A stretch of DNA of 64,000 bases from a virus (IMGVR_UViG_3300025015_000011:64001-128000); one strand, 5' to 3'; positions 22,189-36,699 are shown, numbered from the stretch's first letter. Program-made: numbers and translations. Notes: generated by a model from the sequence alone, not told the origin.

Positions 22189-22575
22189 TTATACTTTCTC
22201 CAGAATTAATGAAATTGTGCCACTCTTTTGAGTGTTTAAAATTTGATACTCCATAAATAGTTCATAACCAGAAATATCATAATTTACATTAATTGATATT
22301 TCAGTCAGTTTGATTCTCTCCCATTCCCATCTTGTTAAAGCAAATTTAAGTTCATCAATAATAGCTGAAGCAGTTTGTGTATCTAAAGGCTCAAATAATA
22401 AATTTTGTAAATTAGTACCATATTCTGGATTGCATAATCTTTCACCTTTCATAGTAAAGAAAAGTGAAGTAAGAGATTGATTTATGGCAGTGTCATTTGT
22501 CACTGCTAAAACATCATTTGAACTAGAAACTTTTCTATATTTAAAATCAAGGTCAGAGTAAATTATATCTGCCAT
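22189..22575 (-). CDS. gp25: Baseplate wedge subunit gp25
   Basis: YSDLD...AINQSL...KGERL.NPEYG..L..LLFEP. Confidence 0.9.
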   Translation of the reverse strand: MADIIYSDLDFKYRKVSSSNDVLAVTNDTAINQSLTSLFFTMKGERLCNPEYGTNLQNLLFEPLDTQTASAIIDELKFALTRWEWERIKLTEISINVNYDISGYELFMEYQILNTQKSGTISLILEKV

Positions 22576-23078
22576 TATTCTATCCTAAAATAGTTATAAG
22601 CAAAGGTAGCATTAACAAGTACATCATCAGCATTATCTGAAACATACGTAAATGGTATTTCTGAAAGGTTGACTGGGAAAGCATCAAAAAAGGTTATGAT
22701 AGCTTTAGGGTTCTTTTTATTTGTTAATATATGCAGGGATATATCTGCTTTAGTCCTCTCATTTAAACCGAACCTTGATGGGTCTTTAGCAGCAATAATC
22801 CAATTATATATGAATTTATAGTTAGTAAAAGGTTCATTCAAAGCATAAGTAATAGTGAAGTTTTCAAAAGTAATATTCTTTGATGGTTGTTTAAAATCAA
22901 GAAACTGAGATGGAAGGATGGTTAGTTCCATACTGACCTGAGGTAGATTAACCCCTTTGCAGTATAATAGAACCTGGTCACCTCTTTCTTTTTCTGCACC
23001 AATCTCAAGGAAAGGTAAAAAAGGAAAAAGTAACTTATAGTTTGTTTCTTGTGCAGTACTAAGGTTTAAGGTAGAAAT
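22575..23078 (-). CDS. gp3: Tail tube terminator gp3-like; probable ATT start at 23078
   Basis: Track ORF (ATG 22931) extends 49 codons in frame (ISTLNLSTAQETNYKLL...YCKGVNLPQVS) to an ATT 7 nt after AGGAG; FFDAFPVNLS...ATFAY C-terminus. Confidence 0.7.
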   Translation of the reverse strand: MSTLNLSTAQETNYKLLFPFLPFLEIGAEKERGDQVLLYCKGVNLPQVSMELTILPSQFLDFKQPSKNITFENFTITYALNEPFTNYKFIYNWIIAAKDPSRFGLNERTKADISLHILTNKKNPKAIITFFDAFPVNLSEIPFTYVSDNADDVLVNATFAYNYFRIE

Positions 23079-23080
23079 GG

Positions 23081-23129
23081 TAAAACTCCTTCACTATTTA
23101 AAATATTTATAATAAGTGAAGGAGTTTTA
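23081..23129 (-). promoter_or_regulatory. SD-sequestering hairpin with late promoter TATAAATA (23104..23111) in its loop
   Basis: Perfect 15-bp inverted repeat taaaactccttcact / agtgaaggagtttta; the 3' arm on the minus strand contains the gp3 SD. Confidence 0.8.
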
Positions 23130-23131
23130 GA

Positions 23132-23509
23132 CTAAAACTTTATATCTTCTGGTGGTTTTGGTTCAAACTGACTACAATATCCCTTTCTCATAACATATTT
23201 ATTCGCCATTGGACAGAAAAGGTCTGTCCCCATACTATATGGATATGCACAATTACCGCAGACCTTTCCTGAAACAGGTCTATTAATATCTGGGTCTTCC
23301 TGACTTGATGGAACTTCTGTAGATTTTGTTCTCAATATTTTATCTGGTTCAGCATAAAAGATTTCAGTTTCTATTGTAATTTTGACAAGAGAAGGGACTT
23401 TAATTGATATTTTAATTTTTGAGTTATTGTCAATATTTAACCCATTTTTAATCAACTCAATAAATTCTTCACTTGTGAGTTCTATTCTCTTAGATTCTTT
23501 GATGTTCAT
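23132..23509 (-). CDS. Hypothetical protein with C-terminal Cys cluster
   Basis: CGNC...C...C motif. Confidence 0.5.
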   Translation of the reverse strand: MNIKESKRIELTSEEFIELIKNGLNIDNNSKIKISIKVPSLVKITIETEIFYAEPDKILRTKSTEVPSSQEDPDINRPVSGKVCGNCAYPYSMGTDLFCPMANKYVMRKGYCSQFEPKPPEDIKF

Positions 23510-23516
23510 CTTTTAC

Positions 23517-23777
23517 TCAGCTTTCTTTATGTGTTATTTGTATTGAAAGAACTCTGTTAAATTCTGTTGTAATTTCTTCTATATTTTCTATTGGCTGATC
23601 CTTCCAACGATTTCCAGAATGAAGGGAAATCATTAAATAATCATCAAAGGCAGTTTGAGCTAAGATATAAACATCTCCACCATCTTTTTCTTGCCACAAA
23701 GAACCACGATGTTCATCAAGGTTAACACGAGGTACCGGTAATGATTTAATGATTTCTATTTCATTGAAAATTTCCAT
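23517..23777 (-). CDS. Hypothetical protein
   Basis: 86 aa, SD GGAG. Confidence 0.5.
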   Translation of the reverse strand: MEIFNEIEIIKSLPVPRVNLDEHRGSLWQEKDGGDVYILAQTAFDDYLMISLHSGNRWKDQPIENIEEITTEFNRVLSIQITHKES

Positions 23778-23778
23778 T

Positions 23779-25128
23779 TTACTCCTCCTTATACTGTTTT
23801 ATTTTATTTAAAAGATAATCACTGTTATTCTTTTCTGGATCTTCAAGGACTTCTTCAAATAAAGCCTTGAGAACTTGCCCCACTTCAGGGCCCGGAGAGA
23901 TATTGAGCACTTCCATAACGTCATTTCCACAGACCTTTAAATCAGCAATCTTGAAAGCAGCATCTTCCTCAAGTATTTTTTGGAATCTCTGTTTTAGTTT
24001 AGTATCAGCAATGTTAAGTTCAGATACAGATTTCTTGCCATTTCCAACTCTATCACCATATTTTAAAATACATAGAGCATCTACGTGCTCTAGACCTAAA
24101 GAAGATACAAATCTTCTGATAGCAGAGTCCTTCATATCATCTGAACATTTGAACATATGGTGAGACACCAAATTCAGGATATAGTTAGAATCATCATTAC
24201 TGAATTTCATCCTTCTCATGATTTTATCTGCTATTTTAACAGACTCTAACTCGTGTGTATGGAAAGTATAATCACCATTTTCAAATTTCCTTGAAGGGAC
24301 TTTTCCTAAATCATGAAAAAGAGTGGCCCATCTGATTAATGGATATTCCTTTGGTATAGCATTTAGAGCATGAATGGTATGCCAAAAGACATCATATTTA
24401 TGGTGTTTATTTTGCTCAAATCCATAAGTCTCAGAAAGTTCTGGCATAATTTTATCCAGGTTCACTGTGGCACTTAAACAGGCTATCATTGTACCTGGTT
24501 TATCTGCTTTAGCAAAACATTTATCAAATTCAGCTTTTATTCTTTCTATAGAAACAATCTTTTCCCAAGGATGAACAGATGCCTCCCATAATGCTTCTAT
24601 TGTCTGGTCTTCTATTTCAAAATTTAAAGTAGCCTTAAATCTATAAGCTCTGAGCATCCTGAGATAGTCTTCTTTAAACCTATCCACAGGGCACCCAACA
24701 GAGCGTATCTTCTTGTTTCCTATGTCAGCAATGCCATTGTATGGGTCAATGTAAGAACCATTGAGTACATCAAAGGCTAACGCATTTATGGTAAAGTCTC
24801 TCCTACTTAAATCTTCTTCAATAGAATCAGCATATTCAACAGTGGCATTTCTACCATCACATGAAACGTCTTTTCTGAAAGTAGTTATTTCATATGGGAA
24901 GGTATCATACAAAACAGTAACAGTCCCATGAGCAATACCAGTAGGAAGGACTTTATATCCTAATTTATTAAATATATCAAAGACTTCTTCTGGTGTAGCT
25001 TTAGTTGCTATATCAATATCACCTGAAGGTACTTTAAGGATAGTATCTCTTACCCATCCCCCAACAATATAAGAAGGGAATCCTTTGCTGTGAAGGATTT
25101 TTATTATTTCATAAGACCCAGATATCAT
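23779..25128 (-). CDS. cca: Class II CCA tRNA nucleotidyltransferase with HD domain
   Basis: VGGWVRD, DIDIAT, RRDFTINA, EDYLRMLR, SIERI..E, FHDLGK. Confidence 0.92.
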   Translation of the reverse strand: MISGSYEIIKILHSKGFPSYIVGGWVRDTILKVPSGDIDIATKATPEEVFDIFNKLGYKVLPTGIAHGTVTVLYDTFPYEITTFRKDVSCDGRNATVEYADSIEEDLSRRDFTINALAFDVLNGSYIDPYNGIADIGNKKIRSVGCPVDRFKEDYLRMLRAYRFKATLNFEIEDQTIEALWEASVHPWEKIVSIERIKAEFDKCFAKADKPGTMIACLSATVNLDKIMPELSETYGFEQNKHHKYDVFWHTIHALNAIPKEYPLIRWATLFHDLGKVPSRKFENGDYTFHTHELESVKIADKIMRRMKFSNDDSNYILNLVSHHMFKCSDDMKDSAIRRFVSSLGLEHVDALCILKYGDRVGNGKKSVSELNIADTKLKQRFQKILEEDAAFKIADLKVCGNDVMEVLNISPGPEVGQVLKALFEEVLEDPEKNNSDYLLNKIKQYKEE

Positions 25129-25460
25129 TTCTTACCTTCAAATTTCTTCTTAAGTCTCTCAAATTCTGCAAATTCCTTTGCTTCTTTCTCGAATTTAGCA
25201 TTTTTGTTAGCTAATGCAATTTTTTTCTTTTTCTCTATTCTCTTATTATATTCAGCATCAGTTTCAAATCTAGTCCCAATTAAAGCTAAGTCCCAATTAT
25301 CACTAAATTTATCTTGGCGATTTTCAATTGAAAGATTAACATAACCCTTTTCATGGTATTCTTTAGAAAGTTCCTGTAAAGAAACTATTAAATCTTCAAG
25401 TTTCTTATCTCCAAAGTCCAAACAAGAAATTAAATCCTCTGATATTAATTTCCTTATCAT
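25125..25460 (-). CDS. Hypothetical protein
   Basis: 111 aa, RFETDAEY motif, basic helical C-terminus, SD GAGGTG. Confidence 0.55.
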   Translation of the reverse strand: MIRKLISEDLISCLDFGDKKLEDLIVSLQELSKEYHEKGYVNLSIENRQDKFSDNWDLALIGTRFETDAEYNKRIEKKKKIALANKNAKFEKEAKEFAEFERLKKKFEGKK

Positions 25461-25489
25461 TTATATCACCTCATTCATTTGATATAATG

Positions 25490-25517
25490 ATTATATCAAA
25501 AAGGAATTGTTTGTCAA
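25490..25517 (-). promoter_or_regulatory. Sigma70-type early promoter
   Basis: TTGACA-N16-TATAAT with extended TG; shares TTCTTGACAAACAATTC with the promoter at 47492. Confidence 0.75.
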
Positions 25518-25524
25518 GAATAAT

Positions 25525-26229
25525 TTATTCTATCACACCATCAATTCCTTTTATATACCACCTGGCTTGAGTGAATATAGGAATTTCTTCATCTTTTACC
25601 CATTGACCTTCAGAATCTTGTATTATACACCAACCTCTCTTATAACCAGTTTTCAAATCATTCCAATTAAATCCTTTTTTGAGCATGAGCATATCTTGAA
25701 TCTGAGAATTATTCTTTCCTTGTAGTTCTTTATGTGAAAAATGAGCCTGACCTAACATCTGCACTGAATTTCTTGAAGCATCCTGCTGTCTCCAGACAAA
25801 GTAATTAACTACTTCTTCTTTTGGAACAGTAAAAGCTCTGCTATCAAACATGGCTAACTGAGGGTTAAGCTCATAAGATGAAGCCAAACGATTAAAATGT
25901 GCAGTAGCAATACTTGCAGAAACTGATGTTATTTTCTGTAGATTCTTCCCAAACCAAGGTTCAGTATTCAGTTTGTCATAATCAGTTACTAATATGGATA
26001 TTTCATCTGATTGAACATAAGCCAGCTTAGCTCCAGGAATATTCATACATAACTGAATAGCGGTATAGTTCATGCAGTTAATTAAAGTATCATCCCATGG
26101 CCTTTTCAATCTCTTTGTAAATGTGTGAAATGCTTTACCATCAATTCTGATAATTAAAGGCATTCTTCTTGTTAAATGAGTCTGAGATACTGCTTCATAT
26201 TTCTTCATTCTGTCACCAAGTGAATCCAT
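25525..26229 (-). CDS. thg1: tRNA(His) guanylyltransferase Thg1-like 3'-5' polymerase
   Basis: MDSLGDRMKKYE, IRIDGKAFHTFT, YVQSDEISIL, FDSRAF, WRQQDASRNS. Start likely 26229 (TAATG coupling, SD GGAGG). Confidence 0.92.
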   Translation of the reverse strand: MDSLGDRMKKYEAVSQTHLTRRMPLIIRIDGKAFHTFTKRLKRPWDDTLINCMNYTAIQLCMNIPGAKLAYVQSDEISILVTDYDKLNTEPWFGKNLQKITSVSASIATAHFNRLASSYELNPQLAMFDSRAFTVPKEEVVNYFVWRQQDASRNSVQMLGQAHFSHKELQGKNNSQIQDMLMLKKGFNWNDLKTGYKRGWCIIQDSEGQWVKDEEIPIFTQARWYIKGIDGVIE

Positions 26230-26999
26230 TATTTCCTCCCATTCCAAAAATCTTCAAGTAATGATATTTGCAATTCATTTATCTTTTCATAATCAGGTTT
26301 AGATGGTAAATTTGAATTAATATAAGATAGTTCTAATTGTCGTTCATATACTTCAAACATTTCCATTATCTCTTGAAGAGAATATTTGCCTCTTTTGATA
26401 TCTAGTAACAAATTGTTATGGTGAGTTGGGAGAGTTAAATTACCTTCTTTAAGAAGCTCTATCCCGAATAACATTAAACGGATAGTATGACTTGCAAATT
26501 TGCAATCAAATCCATATTTATCAAAAATTTCTTTACGTGAACCTATTCTGTTTTGACTTAGCATCTTCCATTTTTGAGAATATGCATATCCTCCAAAACG
26601 GTGTTTTATTCTCAAGGATAAAAAAATCTCTTTATTTGTTAAGATTCTTTGACCAAATTCTGTTTTATGTTGTATACATTTTTCTGGCACAAATAAAGTC
26701 TCAATTAAAGAAGGATTTCCTTCTGCAAGTAGATGAAAATACTTTATAAGAGAATAAACAACAAAATCTTTATCATCTTTGGTATTTCCTACTCCTGAAG
26801 ATGATGAGTTAGTCCTTTCTTCAAACTGTTCAAATTTACCAAGACCTATTACAAAATCCTTAGGTGGTATACAAACACCCATGAAATCTTCATCAGAATC
26901 TTGAGTATTAGTCCCATACATCTGAGACCCTACTCTAAATTTGAGTATCATTCCATTTTCAGATATTTCTTTTTTGAGTTTATCTGTTAGCGTTATCAT
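26229..26999 (-). CDS. RlaP-like pol-beta nucleotidyltransferase
   Basis: GSQMYGTNTQDSDEDFMGV, GNPSLIETLF, FDCKFASHTIRL, LLDIKRG, LPSKPD. Confidence 0.85.
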   Translation of the reverse strand: MITLTDKLKKEISENGMILKFRVGSQMYGTNTQDSDEDFMGVCIPPKDFVIGLGKFEQFEERTNSSSSGVGNTKDDKDFVVYSLIKYFHLLAEGNPSLIETLFVPEKCIQHKTEFGQRILTNKEIFLSLRIKHRFGGYAYSQKWKMLSQNRIGSRKEIFDKYGFDCKFASHTIRLMLFGIELLKEGNLTLPTHHNNLLLDIKRGKYSLQEIMEMFEVYERQLELSYINSNLPSKPDYEKINELQISLLEDFWNGRK

Positions 27000-27244
27000 T
27001 CTACTGTCTCTACAAAGTCACTATATTCCAAAACAGGTAAAGTTAATGCTTTCTTCATCATATTTAAATCATTTTTAAGTTCTGCTAAAGTACTACCATG
27101 AGGTTCCATTGAGTCTACTGATATTGAATAAGGCTTCTTTGACCTTTTGGTTTTGTAGTATGCTTCATGAATGGCATACAATTCTTCAATTTCTCCAAAA
27201 ACTTTTACTACTTCTTGTCTAACTATTCTATAATTCCAGGGCAT
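26996..27244 (-). CDS. Hypothetical protein
   Basis: WNYRIV...AIHEAYY motif. Confidence 0.6.
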   Translation of the reverse strand: MPWNYRIVRQEVVKVFGEIEELYAIHEAYYKTKRSKKPYSISVDSMEPHGSTLAELKNDLNMMKKALTLPVLEYSDFVETVE

Positions 27245-27246
27245 AA

Positions 27247-27672
27247 TTATCTCCTTAAAATTTCAATTGCTTTATCCGCATGTTGTTCTTGAAGTCCAAT
27301 TTCAAAACTAGTTTGAATATGTTTAGTATTTCCCACAAGATTCTCATCATCAAGAATAACAAAATTTTCAACTTCAGGATGAGCCCTTATCCAAGTTCTT
27401 ATTTCATCCCATCTTGACAGGCAAGATAAGATGGGAGTAGTAGATAAAACTCTGCTGCTATCAAGACCTGATAAAGTAAACCATTCTTTTATTTCTGAAA
27501 TACTTTTACCATATCTCCAAGTACTTGAAAGAACTACCATAGCATCAGTATTATCAAGTATCTTTTTTAAATGTGGTATATGGTCAGGATGAAACGGCTT
27601 GCCCTTCCAAGGAAAAGTCAATCCACCTCGGTGGTTCATTACACCATCAATGTCTAAAAATATTATGTTCAT
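27247..27672 (-). CDS. HAD-family phosphatase (RNA-repair HAD_SAK_2-like)
   Basis: IIFLDIDGVMN, VVLSSTWR, R.DEI..W, FVILDD, GL. Confidence 0.85.
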   Translation of the reverse strand: MNIIFLDIDGVMNHRGGLTFPWKGKPFHPDHIPHLKKILDNTDAMVVLSSTWRYGKSISEIKEWFTLSGLDSSRVLSTTPILSCLSRWDEIRTWIRAHPEVENFVILDDENLVGNTKHIQTSFEIGLQEQHADKAIEILRR

Positions 27673-27680
27673 ATAAGTTT

Positions 27681-27754
27681 TGGTGGGCTTACCAGGAATC
27701 GGACCTGAGTCAATCGGTTAAAAGCCGAAGGCTTTACCACTAAGCTATAAGCCC
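27681..27754 (-). tRNA. trnK: tRNA-Lys(UUU) with encoded CCA
   Basis: GGGCTTA TA GCTT-AGTGGTA-AAGC C TTCGG-CTTTTAA-CCGAT TGAC TCAGG-TCCGATT-CCTGG TAAGCCC A CCA. Confidence 0.92.
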
Positions 27755-27804
27755 ATATTAAATTTTAAGCAGTTTATTACCGTGACATGCTCAGGTCAGC
27801 TTCA

Positions 27805-27927
27805 TTATTCTTCTTTCTTTACTTTACCACATCTTTCCATTCTTTCATCATATATTTTCTTGATTACCTTTTCAACCTTTTTCCTTTGCTCATCCTTTAT
27901 ATGTTGTTTCAAATCAAACTTTCCCAT
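27805..27927 (-). CDS. Small basic hypothetical protein (40 aa)
   Basis: MGKFDLKQHIKDEQRKKVEK..., just downstream of a late promoter; below track cutoff. Confidence 0.45.
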   Translation of the reverse strand: MGKFDLKQHIKDEQRKKVEKVIKKIYDERMERCGKVKKEE

Positions 27928-27959: not shown

Positions 27960-27990
27960 ATGAGAATGATAATATCAAAGGAGCATTAAA

Positions 27991-28719
27991 ATGTCAAGTG
28001 GAAATTTAGAAGAAATTCTTCAAAATCTAGAAACTCATGAGTATACTTTCAGAACTAGTCTTTTATCTGATAAATCAATAGAAGTTTCATTCAGACCCAT
28101 GAAAACCAAGGACCAGAAAGTCCTTCTGGTCAATACTGAAAATGAAACATATGTTAACCAATTAAAAGGTCTTGCTGAACTGATTAAATCCTGTATAAAA
28201 AAAAGCAAGATTAAAGTGGAAGAATTATTCATTCAAGACTTTGTATGGCTTGTCCTTAATATCAGGATGAGGTCTCTTGGTGAAAGCTTAGATATAACAG
28301 GTATTTGTACTGAATGTTCTAAAAGGACTCCAAACCTTAAAATAGACCTTGAAAAAAATATTATAGCAAAATATAGCAGTGGACTCAAGAATAATATTGT
28401 TGCTGTTACTCCAGACTTAAAAATGGTGTTAACTTTCCCTAAGGTTAAACACCTTTTATCAAAGAAATCAGATGCTCCAGTTCTTGACCTCATTGCGGAT
28501 GGTATAGATTATGTAGAATTTAAAGATAAGGTTGTTGATTTAACATCAGAAGAAAAGATAGACCTTTTAGATAAAATAGATATTAAATTCATAACCCAAT
28601 TTGAAAAGTTTGAGGCTGAAAATGATTTTGGTGTTATAATAAAGTTTGACTTTAAATGTACTCATTGTGGGGCTGATAATAAAATTGAAGTGAAGGAAAA
28701 TATCCTAAGTTTTTTTTAA
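27991..28719 (+). CDS. gp26: Baseplate hub assembly protein gp26-like
   Basis: FRPMKTKDQKVLL, IRMRSLGE, two CxxC, ends SFF*. Confidence 0.85.
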   Translation: MSSGNLEEILQNLETHEYTFRTSLLSDKSIEVSFRPMKTKDQKVLLVNTENETYVNQLKGLAELIKSCIKKSKIKVEELFIQDFVWLVLNIRMRSLGESLDITGICTECSKRTPNLKIDLEKNIIAKYSSGLKNNIVAVTPDLKMVLTFPKVKHLLSKKSDAPVLDLIADGIDYVEFKDKVVDLTSEEKIDLLDKIDIKFITQFEKFEAENDFGVIIKFDFKCTHCGADNKIEVKENILSFF

Positions 28720-35809: not shown

Positions 35810-35983
35810 ATGGAAAATTATAAAGAAGTATATGATGAAGGTTTCAAGGATGGCAGGGCCTGGCGATACTTGTTTGGGTTCAAATCACAGATAGCAATTA
35901 ATAGCCCAAGAAGAGGTTATGCCGACGGTTATATAGATGGGTTCAATTCAACCCCTACACTAAATGAAATTATAAATGGTTAA
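35810..35983 (+). CDS. Hypothetical protein (57 aa, Y..G..DG motif twice)
   Basis: SD AAGGAG; MENYKEVYDEGFKDG...GYADGYIDG. Confidence 0.5.
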   Translation: MENYKEVYDEGFKDGRAWRYLFGFKSQIAINSPRRGYADGYIDGFNSTPTLNEIING

Positions 35984-36699
35984 TCTCTATACCATAAATT
36001 TACTACCTTCATCAACCCATCCTTCTTGATGATATTAGGTAGTAAATACTTCTCTCTCTTGTCTTCCATTTTCTTTATAAGGTCTTGACCAATGGGATTT
36101 TTAAGTGGAGAAGTATAAAATCCAGTCACTTTCTTGAATGATTGAAGTATAACATCATCTGTTAACTCCCCTTCATTGTTGTTTACTTCAATCATAAAAT
36201 TGAACTTAGATTTATAAAAATCTTTCATGGAAGATATTTTATCATGGGTCTTCCTAATAAAATCCTCTGGGACTTTACGCTCTCTTTGTTTAATCCGCTC
36301 TAATGCAACTTCCAGGTCAGTATTAATAAACACTACCCCAATATCATAACCAATAGATTCAAGAGCACCATACCTAAGTAATAAATTTCTACTGTTAGAA
36401 GATGTTGAATCTATAACAAGGGGTAATATACCATTTAAATATTGAAAAAGAAACTCTTTTGTTAATATTTTAGATTTATCAATTAAGGCCTTTTCAAGAG
36501 GAACAGATAAATCAAGATTTTTAGTCTTCCCAAAATATTCAACTACTCGGTCAGTATTAATTATTCTGGGTTCAATATTACCAGATTTAATTTTGGACAA
36601 AGTATAAGACTTGCCACTTCCTGGAAATCCTACCAGGAAGATGGCTTTCAGTCTACCTATATCATTGATGGATTCATTTACAAAGGATTTAAAATCCAT
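35980..36699 (-). CDS. P-loop kinase (AAA_33/zeta-like) with capsid-targeting-like N-terminus
   Basis: MDFKSFVNE; GFPGSGKS; LVIDST; VALERIKQRERKVP. Confidence 0.8.
   Translation of the reverse strand: MDFKSFVNESINDIGRLKAIFLVGFPGSGKSYTLSKIKSGNIEPRIINTDRVVEYFGKTKNLDLSVPLEKALIDKSKILTKEFLFQYLNGILPLVIDSTSSNSRNLLLRYGALESIGYDIGVVFINTDLEVALERIKQRERKVPEDFIRKTHDKISSMKDFYKSKFNFMIEVNNNEGELTDDVILQSFKKVTGFYTSPLKNPIGQDLIKKMEDKREKYLLPNIIKKDGLMKVVNLWYRD

Follow-up and report, generated by a model that had tools for sequence, protein, structure and literature searches.

A 64,000-nucleotide stretch of viral DNA (the window; bases 64001-128000 of the 166,689-base IMG/VR virus record IMGVR_UViG_3300025015_000011) carries a minus-strand island that runs from a gene for tRNA-Lys(UUU) through genes for a HAD_SAK_2 phosphatase, an RlaP nucleotidyltransferase, and a Thg1-like protein (TLP) to a gene for a CCA-adding enzyme with an HD domain (CCA/HD). 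We favor, at a probability of about 0.6, reading this island as an early-expressed kit for healing and rebuilding tRNA ends that comes with a replacement tRNA and is probably directed against host defenses that target tRNAs. An earlier interpretation made without database searches (the sequence-only reading) had named the same five parts and described them as a co-oriented island of ~4 kb between baseplate genes. That description held: the tRNA was called by both ARAGORN and Rfam; in profile hidden Markov model (HMM) searches all four enzymes exceeded their Pfam gathering scores, with catalytic motifs kept and PHROGs in agreement; and the whole span, 3,976 bases, lies on the minus strand between baseplate genes. 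The record, with a completeness of ~72% as estimated by CheckV, belongs to a T4-like phage of 167 kb, not a jumbo phage, and the same phage is present at 99.4-100% identity in several groundwater metagenome assemblies. Coordinates are those of the window unless marked as genome.

Gene order and coupling within the island

Read along the minus strand from 27997 to 23081, the order is promoter P1, a 40-amino-acid open reading frame (ORF), tRNA-Lys(UUU), HAD_SAK_2, orf82, RlaP, TLP, promoter P2, orf111, CCA/HD, orf86, orf125, and a hairpin (Table 1). Stop and start codons overlap by 4 nucleotides (ATGA) at both orf82/RlaP and orf111/CCA, and RlaP and TLP overlap by 1 nucleotide given a TLP start at ATG 26229, the position at which the alignment to the Bacillus thuringiensis homolog (BtTLP) begins and on which independent gene calls in another assembly agree. 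The predicted promoter P1 lies upstream of the 40-amino-acid ORF, the tRNA, and the HAD-to-TLP genes, whereas P2 occupies the gap between TLP and orf111, the sole real intergenic gap of the island. The island is probably an accessory operon of two transcription units behind host-type promoters. It sits at a divergent junction between two baseplate operons: on the plus strand a baseplate hub gene (phrog_150) begins at 27991 and is followed by genes for more wedge and hub proteins, and on the minus strand the island is flanked by a tail-tube-like gene, gp25, and a gp6-like wedge gene.

Junctions of this kind, where a divergent promoter region separates structural operons, commonly gather accessory genes, and the island could accordingly be a loose collection at a permissive site whose members act on differing substrates, for example HAD on nucleotides or proteins and RlaP on other RNAs. 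Such a collection would suit the frequent occurrence of HAD_SAK_2 homologs alone among unrelated genes, the very large orf82 family with its varied contexts, and a HAD fold nearest to protein and sugar phosphatases. We nevertheless consider it quite unlikely. When the nine RNA-end genes of the genome were placed at random among its 257 ORFs, the probability that any four of them would fall within 6 consecutive ORFs was ~0.0016 (permutation); the genes are translationally coupled; and the same families occur together in unrelated phages, including HAD, RlaP, and CCA in the same order.

tRNA genes and codon usage

The tRNA-Lys(UUU) gene has an acceptor stem paired throughout and a canonical anticodon loop (CUUUUAA). 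Its T-loop reads UCCGAUU, with C in place of U55, a residue that is nearly universal in tRNAs; the usual form, UUCGA, was found in the phage's own tRNA-Leu and tRNA-Gly and in the tRNA-Lys genes of other phages. The other two phage tRNA genes, for tRNA-Leu(UAA) and for a marginal tRNA-Gly(UCC) with a short D-arm, lie in the genome outside the window. All three (Lys, Leu, and Gly) have an encoded CCA and a paired acceptor stem, so the CCA enzyme and TLP are dispensable for maturing the phage's own tRNAs, and repair or maintenance is therefore favored over biogenesis.

Maintenance of a purely housekeeping kind is somewhat unlikely, in our judgment, as an account of the whole island. The phage would supply tRNA-Lys(UUU) and tRNA-Leu(UAA) for its AT-rich codons, and the enzymes would maintain the tRNA pool (CCA turnover and quality control of 5' and 3' ends), for example after shut-off of the host CCA enzyme. 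AAA is the most frequent phage codon (58.7 per 1,000) and the top lysine codon, and TTA is the main leucine codon (42% of Leu codons), because of which plain tRNA supply stays a live partial explanation. Of 77 phage loci, 28 had TLP no more than 7 kb from a tRNA gene, and the tRNAs that adjoin such modules in other phages have no encoded CCA, as maintenance would also have it. On the other hand, none of the three phage tRNAs needs an enzyme for its maturation, the equally common codons GAA, AAT, and GAT have no phage tRNA, and a 3'-phosphatase and RlaP would make little sense where routine turnover leaves a 3'-OH.

Enzymes acting on 3' and 5' ends

The HAD_SAK_2 protein keeps HAD motifs I (DIDGV) and IV (LDDE), and its residues D7, D9, S50, D108, and D109, the catalytic aspartates among them, were invariant across 50 homologs. 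It stands alone, the multidomain "Swiss Army Knife" architecture of RNA repair being absent here, as do 342 homologs of 77 to 247 amino acids. Its predicted structure (predicted local distance difference test [pLDDT], 93.7) is a capless HAD fold whose best structural matches were MDP-1 (Z = 10.6) and CTD phosphatases (Z ~9); the phosphatase of T4 Pnkp was matched at Z = 7.9 (root mean square deviation of 3.2 over 116 residues). This fold search gave no separation of RNA-end phosphatases from other capless HAD phosphatases. As modeled, the fold would be compatible with, though short of proof of, a macromolecular phospho-end substrate, and we infer that the enzyme is an RNA 3'-phosphatase. The HAD start codon lies 8 nucleotides past the tRNA-Lys 3' end (AAACTTAT and then ATG; 27672-27681, minus strand) and has no Shine-Dalgarno sequence, unlike the neighboring genes, at which AGGAG-type sites are present. 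HAD translation may depend on tRNA processing that yields a near-leaderless mRNA.

The CCA enzyme carries the class II motifs GGWVRD, DIDIAT, RRDFTINA, EDYLRMLRA, and ERIKAEFDK, and its best relatives among solved structures are CCA-adding enzymes (6IBP, E = 9e-42; 1MIV, E = 3e-39). Its HD domain is C-terminal, as in the multifunctional Escherichia coli CCA enzyme, keeps the H...HD...D residues, and scored above the cutoffs for both HD (35.7 versus 22 bits) and HDIG (31.1 versus 27.6). The top NCBIfam CCA equivalogs stayed below their cutoffs (283 versus 438.8 and 257 versus 290), as did PcnB (136 versus 305.65). Judging from these motifs and matches, the enzyme is likely to add the full CCA and not to be confined to CC or A addition or to act as a poly(A) polymerase.

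TLP is of the bacterial type. It matched phrog_4717 (E = 1.6e-93) and was ~55% identical, by identity counted from the alignment, to BtTLP over its full length (4KGK; E = 6e-73), a far closer match than that to Candida Thg1 (E = 1.7e-13). The eukaryotic HINNLYN motif is absent, DASRNSV standing at the position that it occupies in the Candida protein. The RIDG and SDE motifs of TLP align with their equivalents in the BtTLP structure, which we take to be the metal-binding Asp, Asp, and Glu of that enzyme. By analogy with characterized relatives, the phage protein would perform templated 3'-5' repair of 5'-truncated tRNA. In one assembly of the same phage (L096), the stretch corresponding to positions 27319-25444 showed 10 mismatches and one gap, and TLP was called as fragments of 75 and 108 amino acids; this broken form is either a population variant or an assembly error.

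RlaP and the RNA ligases of the genome

RlaP bears an active-site signature of the Pol-beta type (GS...DSDED) rather than the motifs of lysine-adenylate ligases, and it had no sequence match among solved structures at an E value of ≤1. The family derives its name from an association with RNA ligases (PMC7824862). Its characterized members, PfRlaP and PaRlaP, add 1 or 2 nucleoside monophosphates (NMPs) to RNA 3'-OH ends, favor the broken end of cleaved tRNA, refuse 3'-phosphate ends, and do not ligate (bioRxiv 10.64898/2025.12.29.696909). By extension, the phage RlaP would add 1 or 2 nucleotides to RNA 3'-OH ends and is most readily understood as an enzyme that fills in nucleotides rather than one that joins ends. 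Because RlaP needs a 3'-OH, the presence of a phosphatase gene directly upstream makes biochemical sense.

The sequence-only reading had noted that the window has no Rnl1 or RtcB and had proposed a ligase-free pathway for both tRNA ends in which RlaP might carry out the joining or adenylylation. The 64-kb window encodes neither an RNA ligase nor RtcB, and no ligase gene adjoins RlaP, the nearest being that of RtcB, which the genome places ~51 kb away from the island. As a premise that the phage lacks a ligase, the same observation failed, since a genome-wide search found three candidates outside the window: the RtcB protein (383 amino acids, 333 bits), whose gene is followed by one for a calcineurin-like (Metallophos) phosphoesterase; an Rnl5-type ligase, matching Naegleria Rnl at E = 1.5e-16, in which an N-terminal OB fold accompanies RNA_ligase; and a second ligase-fold protein, which had no sequence match among solved structures. 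There was no clear Rnl1 in the genome (best score, 20.5 bits, below the 28.3 cutoff). Joining by RlaP, for which the ligase-free window and the family name had spoken, is thus highly improbable given what characterized RlaP does, the nucleotidyltransferase motifs, and the ligases at hand, and this element of the earlier proposal is not supported.

The RtcB gene lies in a plus-strand run (genome 37232-39390; L005) in which a gene for a 79-amino-acid protein with a prepilin N-methylation motif precedes those of RtcB and the phosphoesterase; the latter two look like a second RNA-repair pair. Within the window but outside the island, a P-loop kinase of the AAA_33/Zeta_toxin type adjoins a gp19-like tail tube gene. 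Among NCBIfam models, it came nearest to that of the tRNA kinase PSTK (E = 1.4e-7, a score far below the cutoff). As a candidate 5'-kinase for polynucleotides or tRNAs, it is a potential partner of the island.

Recurrence in other phages

RlaP and CCA/HD, with or without TLP, form a common phage module. Among the best 80 phage loci anchored on the CCA/HD enzyme, RlaP lay within 7 kb of it in 75, mostly directly upstream, TLP in 38, and HAD_SAK_2 in 3. A tblastn survey anchored on TLP gave few neighbors, whereas HMM searches of whole records showed that co-occurrence is common and distances are variable: 50 TLP-carrying IMG/VR records included 25 with RlaP, 13 with a CCA-type enzyme, and 6 with HAD_SAK_2, and RlaP was present in 14 of the 19 near-complete TLP-carrying records. 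TLP was apart from RlaP in both cultured phages checked, Fusobacterium phage Fnu1 and Bacillus phage 0524phi7-1.

Several loci came close to the island in content. In an unrelated phage (L139/G052), RlaP, CCA, TLP, and HAD_SAK_2 are encoded on one strand within 8.8 kb, downstream of tRNAs for Ser, Asn, Lys(UUU), and Ser, so that the four enzymes and tRNA-Lys(UUU) fall within ~14 kb. HAD, RlaP, and CCA are consecutive in another (L178/G053), in the order seen in the window, and a third (L027) has RlaP, an 89-amino-acid ORF, CCA/HD, TLP, a Metallophos phosphoesterase, and tRNA-Ser co-oriented within ~11 kb. A 19-kb phage-like metagenome contig (L114) encodes a HAD_SAK_2 homolog 38% identical to that of the window, along with CCA/HD, a short RNA ligase, and a 758-amino-acid kinase-Metallophos-Rnl1 fusion, all within 12 kb; the layout of the fusion is presumably that of the bacterial Pnkp of the Pnkp/Hen1 system. 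By its predicted gene content, this contig is another dense RNA-repair neighborhood. The tRNAs near RlaP-CCA modules in L123, L125, L130, L139, and L150 were often Gln(UUG) or Lys(UUU), tRNAs that have a modified U34 and are typical targets of anticodon nucleases.

The families of the island thus co-occur in unrelated phages. No diverged close relative in which to follow their synteny was found, every assembly carrying orf82 being the same phage, and a peptide-pattern search of IMG/VR with the gp6-like, RlaP, and CCA proteins found no relatives.

Proposed function of the island

A role in tRNA repair or counter-defense is plausible and agrees with the published predictions for these families (PMC7824862) and with their recurrence in unrelated phages; to this extent the both-ends pathway of the sequence-only reading survives, minus its RlaP-joining mechanism. 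In the scheme that we propose, host nucleases or toxins would damage tRNAs, trimming the 3' tail or the 5' end or leaving a 3'-phosphate or 2',3'-cyclic phosphate. The capless HAD and the HD domain of the CCA enzyme would convert blocked 3' ends to 3'-OH, RlaP would replace 1 or 2 lost nucleotides on the ends so opened, and the CCA enzyme would rebuild the CCA tail, while TLP would refill missing 5' nucleotides by copying the opposite (3') strand of the acceptor stem. Breaks that need sealing would pass to the Rnl5-type ligase, the second ligase-fold protein, or RtcB elsewhere in the genome, the P-loop kinase supplying the 5'-phosphate. The co-transcribed tRNA-Lys(UUU) would top up a classic nuclease target that reads the phage's commonest codon.

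Candidate opponents have been published: PrrC and other anticodon nucleases are documented (PMC10264068), Cas12a3 cuts tRNA CCA tails (PMC12851939), toxSAS enzymes pyrophosphorylate the tRNA CCA end (PMC11245113), and MenT toxins extend tRNA acceptor ends (PMC10435456). By analogy, each of these is a plausible opponent of the island, and the link of tRNA-Lys(UUU) to PrrC and PARIS, drawn already in the sequence-only reading, is likewise an analogy from the literature. The island might even be a self-sufficient, ligase-independent pathway for rebuilding the acceptor arm that evolved specifically against defenses which cut or block the tails and acceptor stems of tRNAs (Cas12a3-like nucleases, pyrophosphorylation by toxSAS, and extension of the MenT/AbiEii type). 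Once HAD and HD had freed the 3' end, RlaP would put back the discriminator and its neighboring nucleotides, which are beyond the CCA enzyme; the CCA enzyme would add the tail, and TLP would restore the 5' strand, with orf82 and orf111 as specificity or tRNA-handling subunits. We regard so specialized a pathway as unlikely.

Several observations weigh against a dedicated tRNA repair and counter-defense kit. The phage is uncultivated and known from groundwater metagenomes alone. The survey of 80 loci was dominated by one gut-phage clade, and its counts are not phylogenetically corrected. HAD resembles generic capless HAD phosphatases more than the T4 Pnkp phosphatase (Z = 10.6 versus 7.9), and stand-alone HAD_SAK_2 had no RNA-repair neighbors in 3 of 4 metagenome contexts and in the cultured phages KP27 and Perkons, in both of which no annotated RNA-repair gene adjoined it. 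The 3'-OH product of RlaP is mismatched to RtcB chemistry, and the TLP gene is frameshifted in assembly L096. The anticodon loop of tRNA-Lys(UUU) has no evasion-type change, its C55 is odd, and the rank of AAA and TTA as top lysine and leucine codons matches simple tRNA supply.

Small ORFs and other features

The orf82 product belongs to a family of ~80-amino-acid proteins (767 representatives at 50% identity) whose consensus begins MxWNYRVVR, and it was modeled (pLDDT, 93.8) as a long beta-hairpin plus a helix. It matched no Pfam family, had no Foldseek match at an E value of ≤0.001, and reached VIA Z scores of ≤2.6; an assignment as HicB/UPF0150-like was dropped, as it came from a single weak member match (E = 0.014). 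For orf111, tblastn found no phage homolog, and there was no homology to the 89-amino-acid ORF that precedes CCA in L027.

Beyond orf125 lies a perfect hairpin of 15 bp with TATAAATA in the loop; together with the two predicted promoters, it sets the island apart from the tail and baseplate genes. The frame of the tail-tube-like ORF (22575-23129 region, minus strand) has no stop codon between its first ATG (22931) and an upstream ATT at 23078, which sits 7 nucleotides past GAAGGAG, a sequence within the 3' arm of the hairpin. This gene may start at a codon other than ATG, with its ribosome site masked by the hairpin; the Pfam gp19 match stayed outside the residues added by the upstream extension.

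Table 1. Coordinates of the island, its predicted signals, and related genes of the phage
Feature	Coordinates	Strand	Remarks
P1, predicted sigma-70-like promoter	27969..27997	-	TTGACA, 17 nucleotides, TATTAT, with TG; 11/12 matches; consensus scan
40-amino-acid ORF	27805..27927	-	Lys/Glu-rich; first gene of unit; gene call also in another assembly of the same phage
tRNA-Lys(UUU)	27681..27754	-	74 nucleotides including encoded CCA; ARAGORN; Rfam 65.6 bits
HAD_SAK_2 (PF18143)	27247..27672	-	141 amino acids; Pfam 97.8 bits versus cutoff 27.5
orf82	26996..27244	-	Small protein; 4-nucleotide overlap with RlaP start
RlaP (PF10127), Pol-beta nucleotidyltransferase	26229..26999	-	256 amino acids; Pfam 92.1 bits versus cutoff 23; phrog_388, E = 1.2e-62
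TLP (Thg1, PF04446)	25525..26229 (alternative start 26247)	-	Bacterial type; 234 amino acids from ATG 26229; 110.2 bits versus 29.2
P2, predicted sigma-70-like promoter	25490..25517	-	TTGACA, 16 nucleotides, TG, TATAAT; 12/12 matches; consensus scan
orf111	25125..25460	-	Lys-rich C-terminal tail; 4-nucleotide overlap with CCA start
CCA/HD, class II CCA-adding enzyme with C-terminal HD/HDIG	23779..25128	-	449 amino acids; PolyA_pol 118.9, HD 35.7, tRNA_NucTran2_2 38.3 bits
orf86	23517..23777	-	Near end of run
orf125	23132..23509	-	Last gene of run
Hairpin	23081..23129	-	Perfect, 15 bp
AAA_33/Zeta_toxin P-loop kinase	35980..36699	-	239 amino acids; in window, outside island; weak PSTK similarity
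tRNA-Leu(UAA)	genome 62031-62115		Outside window; encoded CCA
tRNA-Gly(UCC), marginal	genome 24701-24771 (L109:4801-4871)	+	Outside window; encoded CCA; Rfam 29.7 bits versus cutoff 29; no ARAGORN call

Comparison with known systems

New defenses that act by cleaving the anticodon or the CCA tail of tRNAs or by blocking their 3' end, and so disable them, are coming to light rapidly. The phage side of the conflict is mostly prediction, T4 Pnkp/Rnl1 and phage tRNAs excepted. RlaP, CCA, Thg1, RNA ligases, kinases/phosphoesterases, and tRNAs have been cataloged as RNA-repair families of phages and jumbo phages, with RlaP predicted to restore lost 3' nucleotides, CCA to rebuild the tail, Thg1 to restore 5' nucleotides, and phage tRNAs to substitute for cleaved ones (PMC7824862). 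The window shares these families and predicted roles and differs from the cataloged examples in packing four end-acting enzymes and a tRNA into 4 kb away from ligases, in having a stand-alone rather than multidomain HAD_SAK_2, and in belonging to a T4-like phage of 167 kb rather than a jumbo phage.

Among individual components, the catalytic carboxylates of BtTLP (4KGK/4KGM; activity, PMC3061083) are conserved in the window TLP and neither protein has HINNLYN; unlike BtTLP, the window protein, known here from sequence, is phage encoded and shares an operon with 3'-end enzymes. The Pseudomonas proteins PfRlaP and PaRlaP, encoded in RtcB-RlaP-RtcA operons, belong to the same Pfam family as the window RlaP and have the same Pol-beta signature, but the neighbors of the window gene are a phosphatase and TLP, not a ligase. 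With T4 Pnkp/Rnl1 the island would share a common logic, the healing of ends followed by restoration of a lysine tRNA hit by a host defense, and both the phosphatase domain of T4 Pnkp and the window HAD are of the HAD superfamily. Unlike T4, this phage has no bifunctional Pnkp or clear Rnl1; its kinase, phosphatase, and ligases are products of separate, scattered genes, and the genome has RtcB and an Rnl5-type ligase in place of Rnl1. To our knowledge, end-rebuilding polymerases such as those of the island are not part of the T4 pathway.

The families, their co-orientation, and their proximity to tRNAs are common to the window and to L027, L139/G052, and L178/G053. Identities between the window proteins and those of the IMG/VR modules were 32-39% for HAD, RlaP, and CCA and 45-48% for TLP. 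In those modules RlaP lies directly before CCA with TLP kilobases off, whereas in the window TLP and orf111 stand between the two. The parts and the type of module are thus already known from large phages, which makes the island a neat and complete instance of them and not a new system. Its particular traits are that 4 kb hold the four enzymes plus a tRNA, that HAD_SAK_2 stands alone and precedes RlaP, that TLP lies between RlaP and CCA, and that the site is the baseplate operon junction of a T4-like phage. Among the most compact natural sets of 3'- and 5'-end tRNA enzymes with a tRNA, it introduces no new principle and is a handy cassette for testing whether, and against which defenses, phage TLP, RlaP, CCA/HD, and HAD_SAK_2 cooperate.

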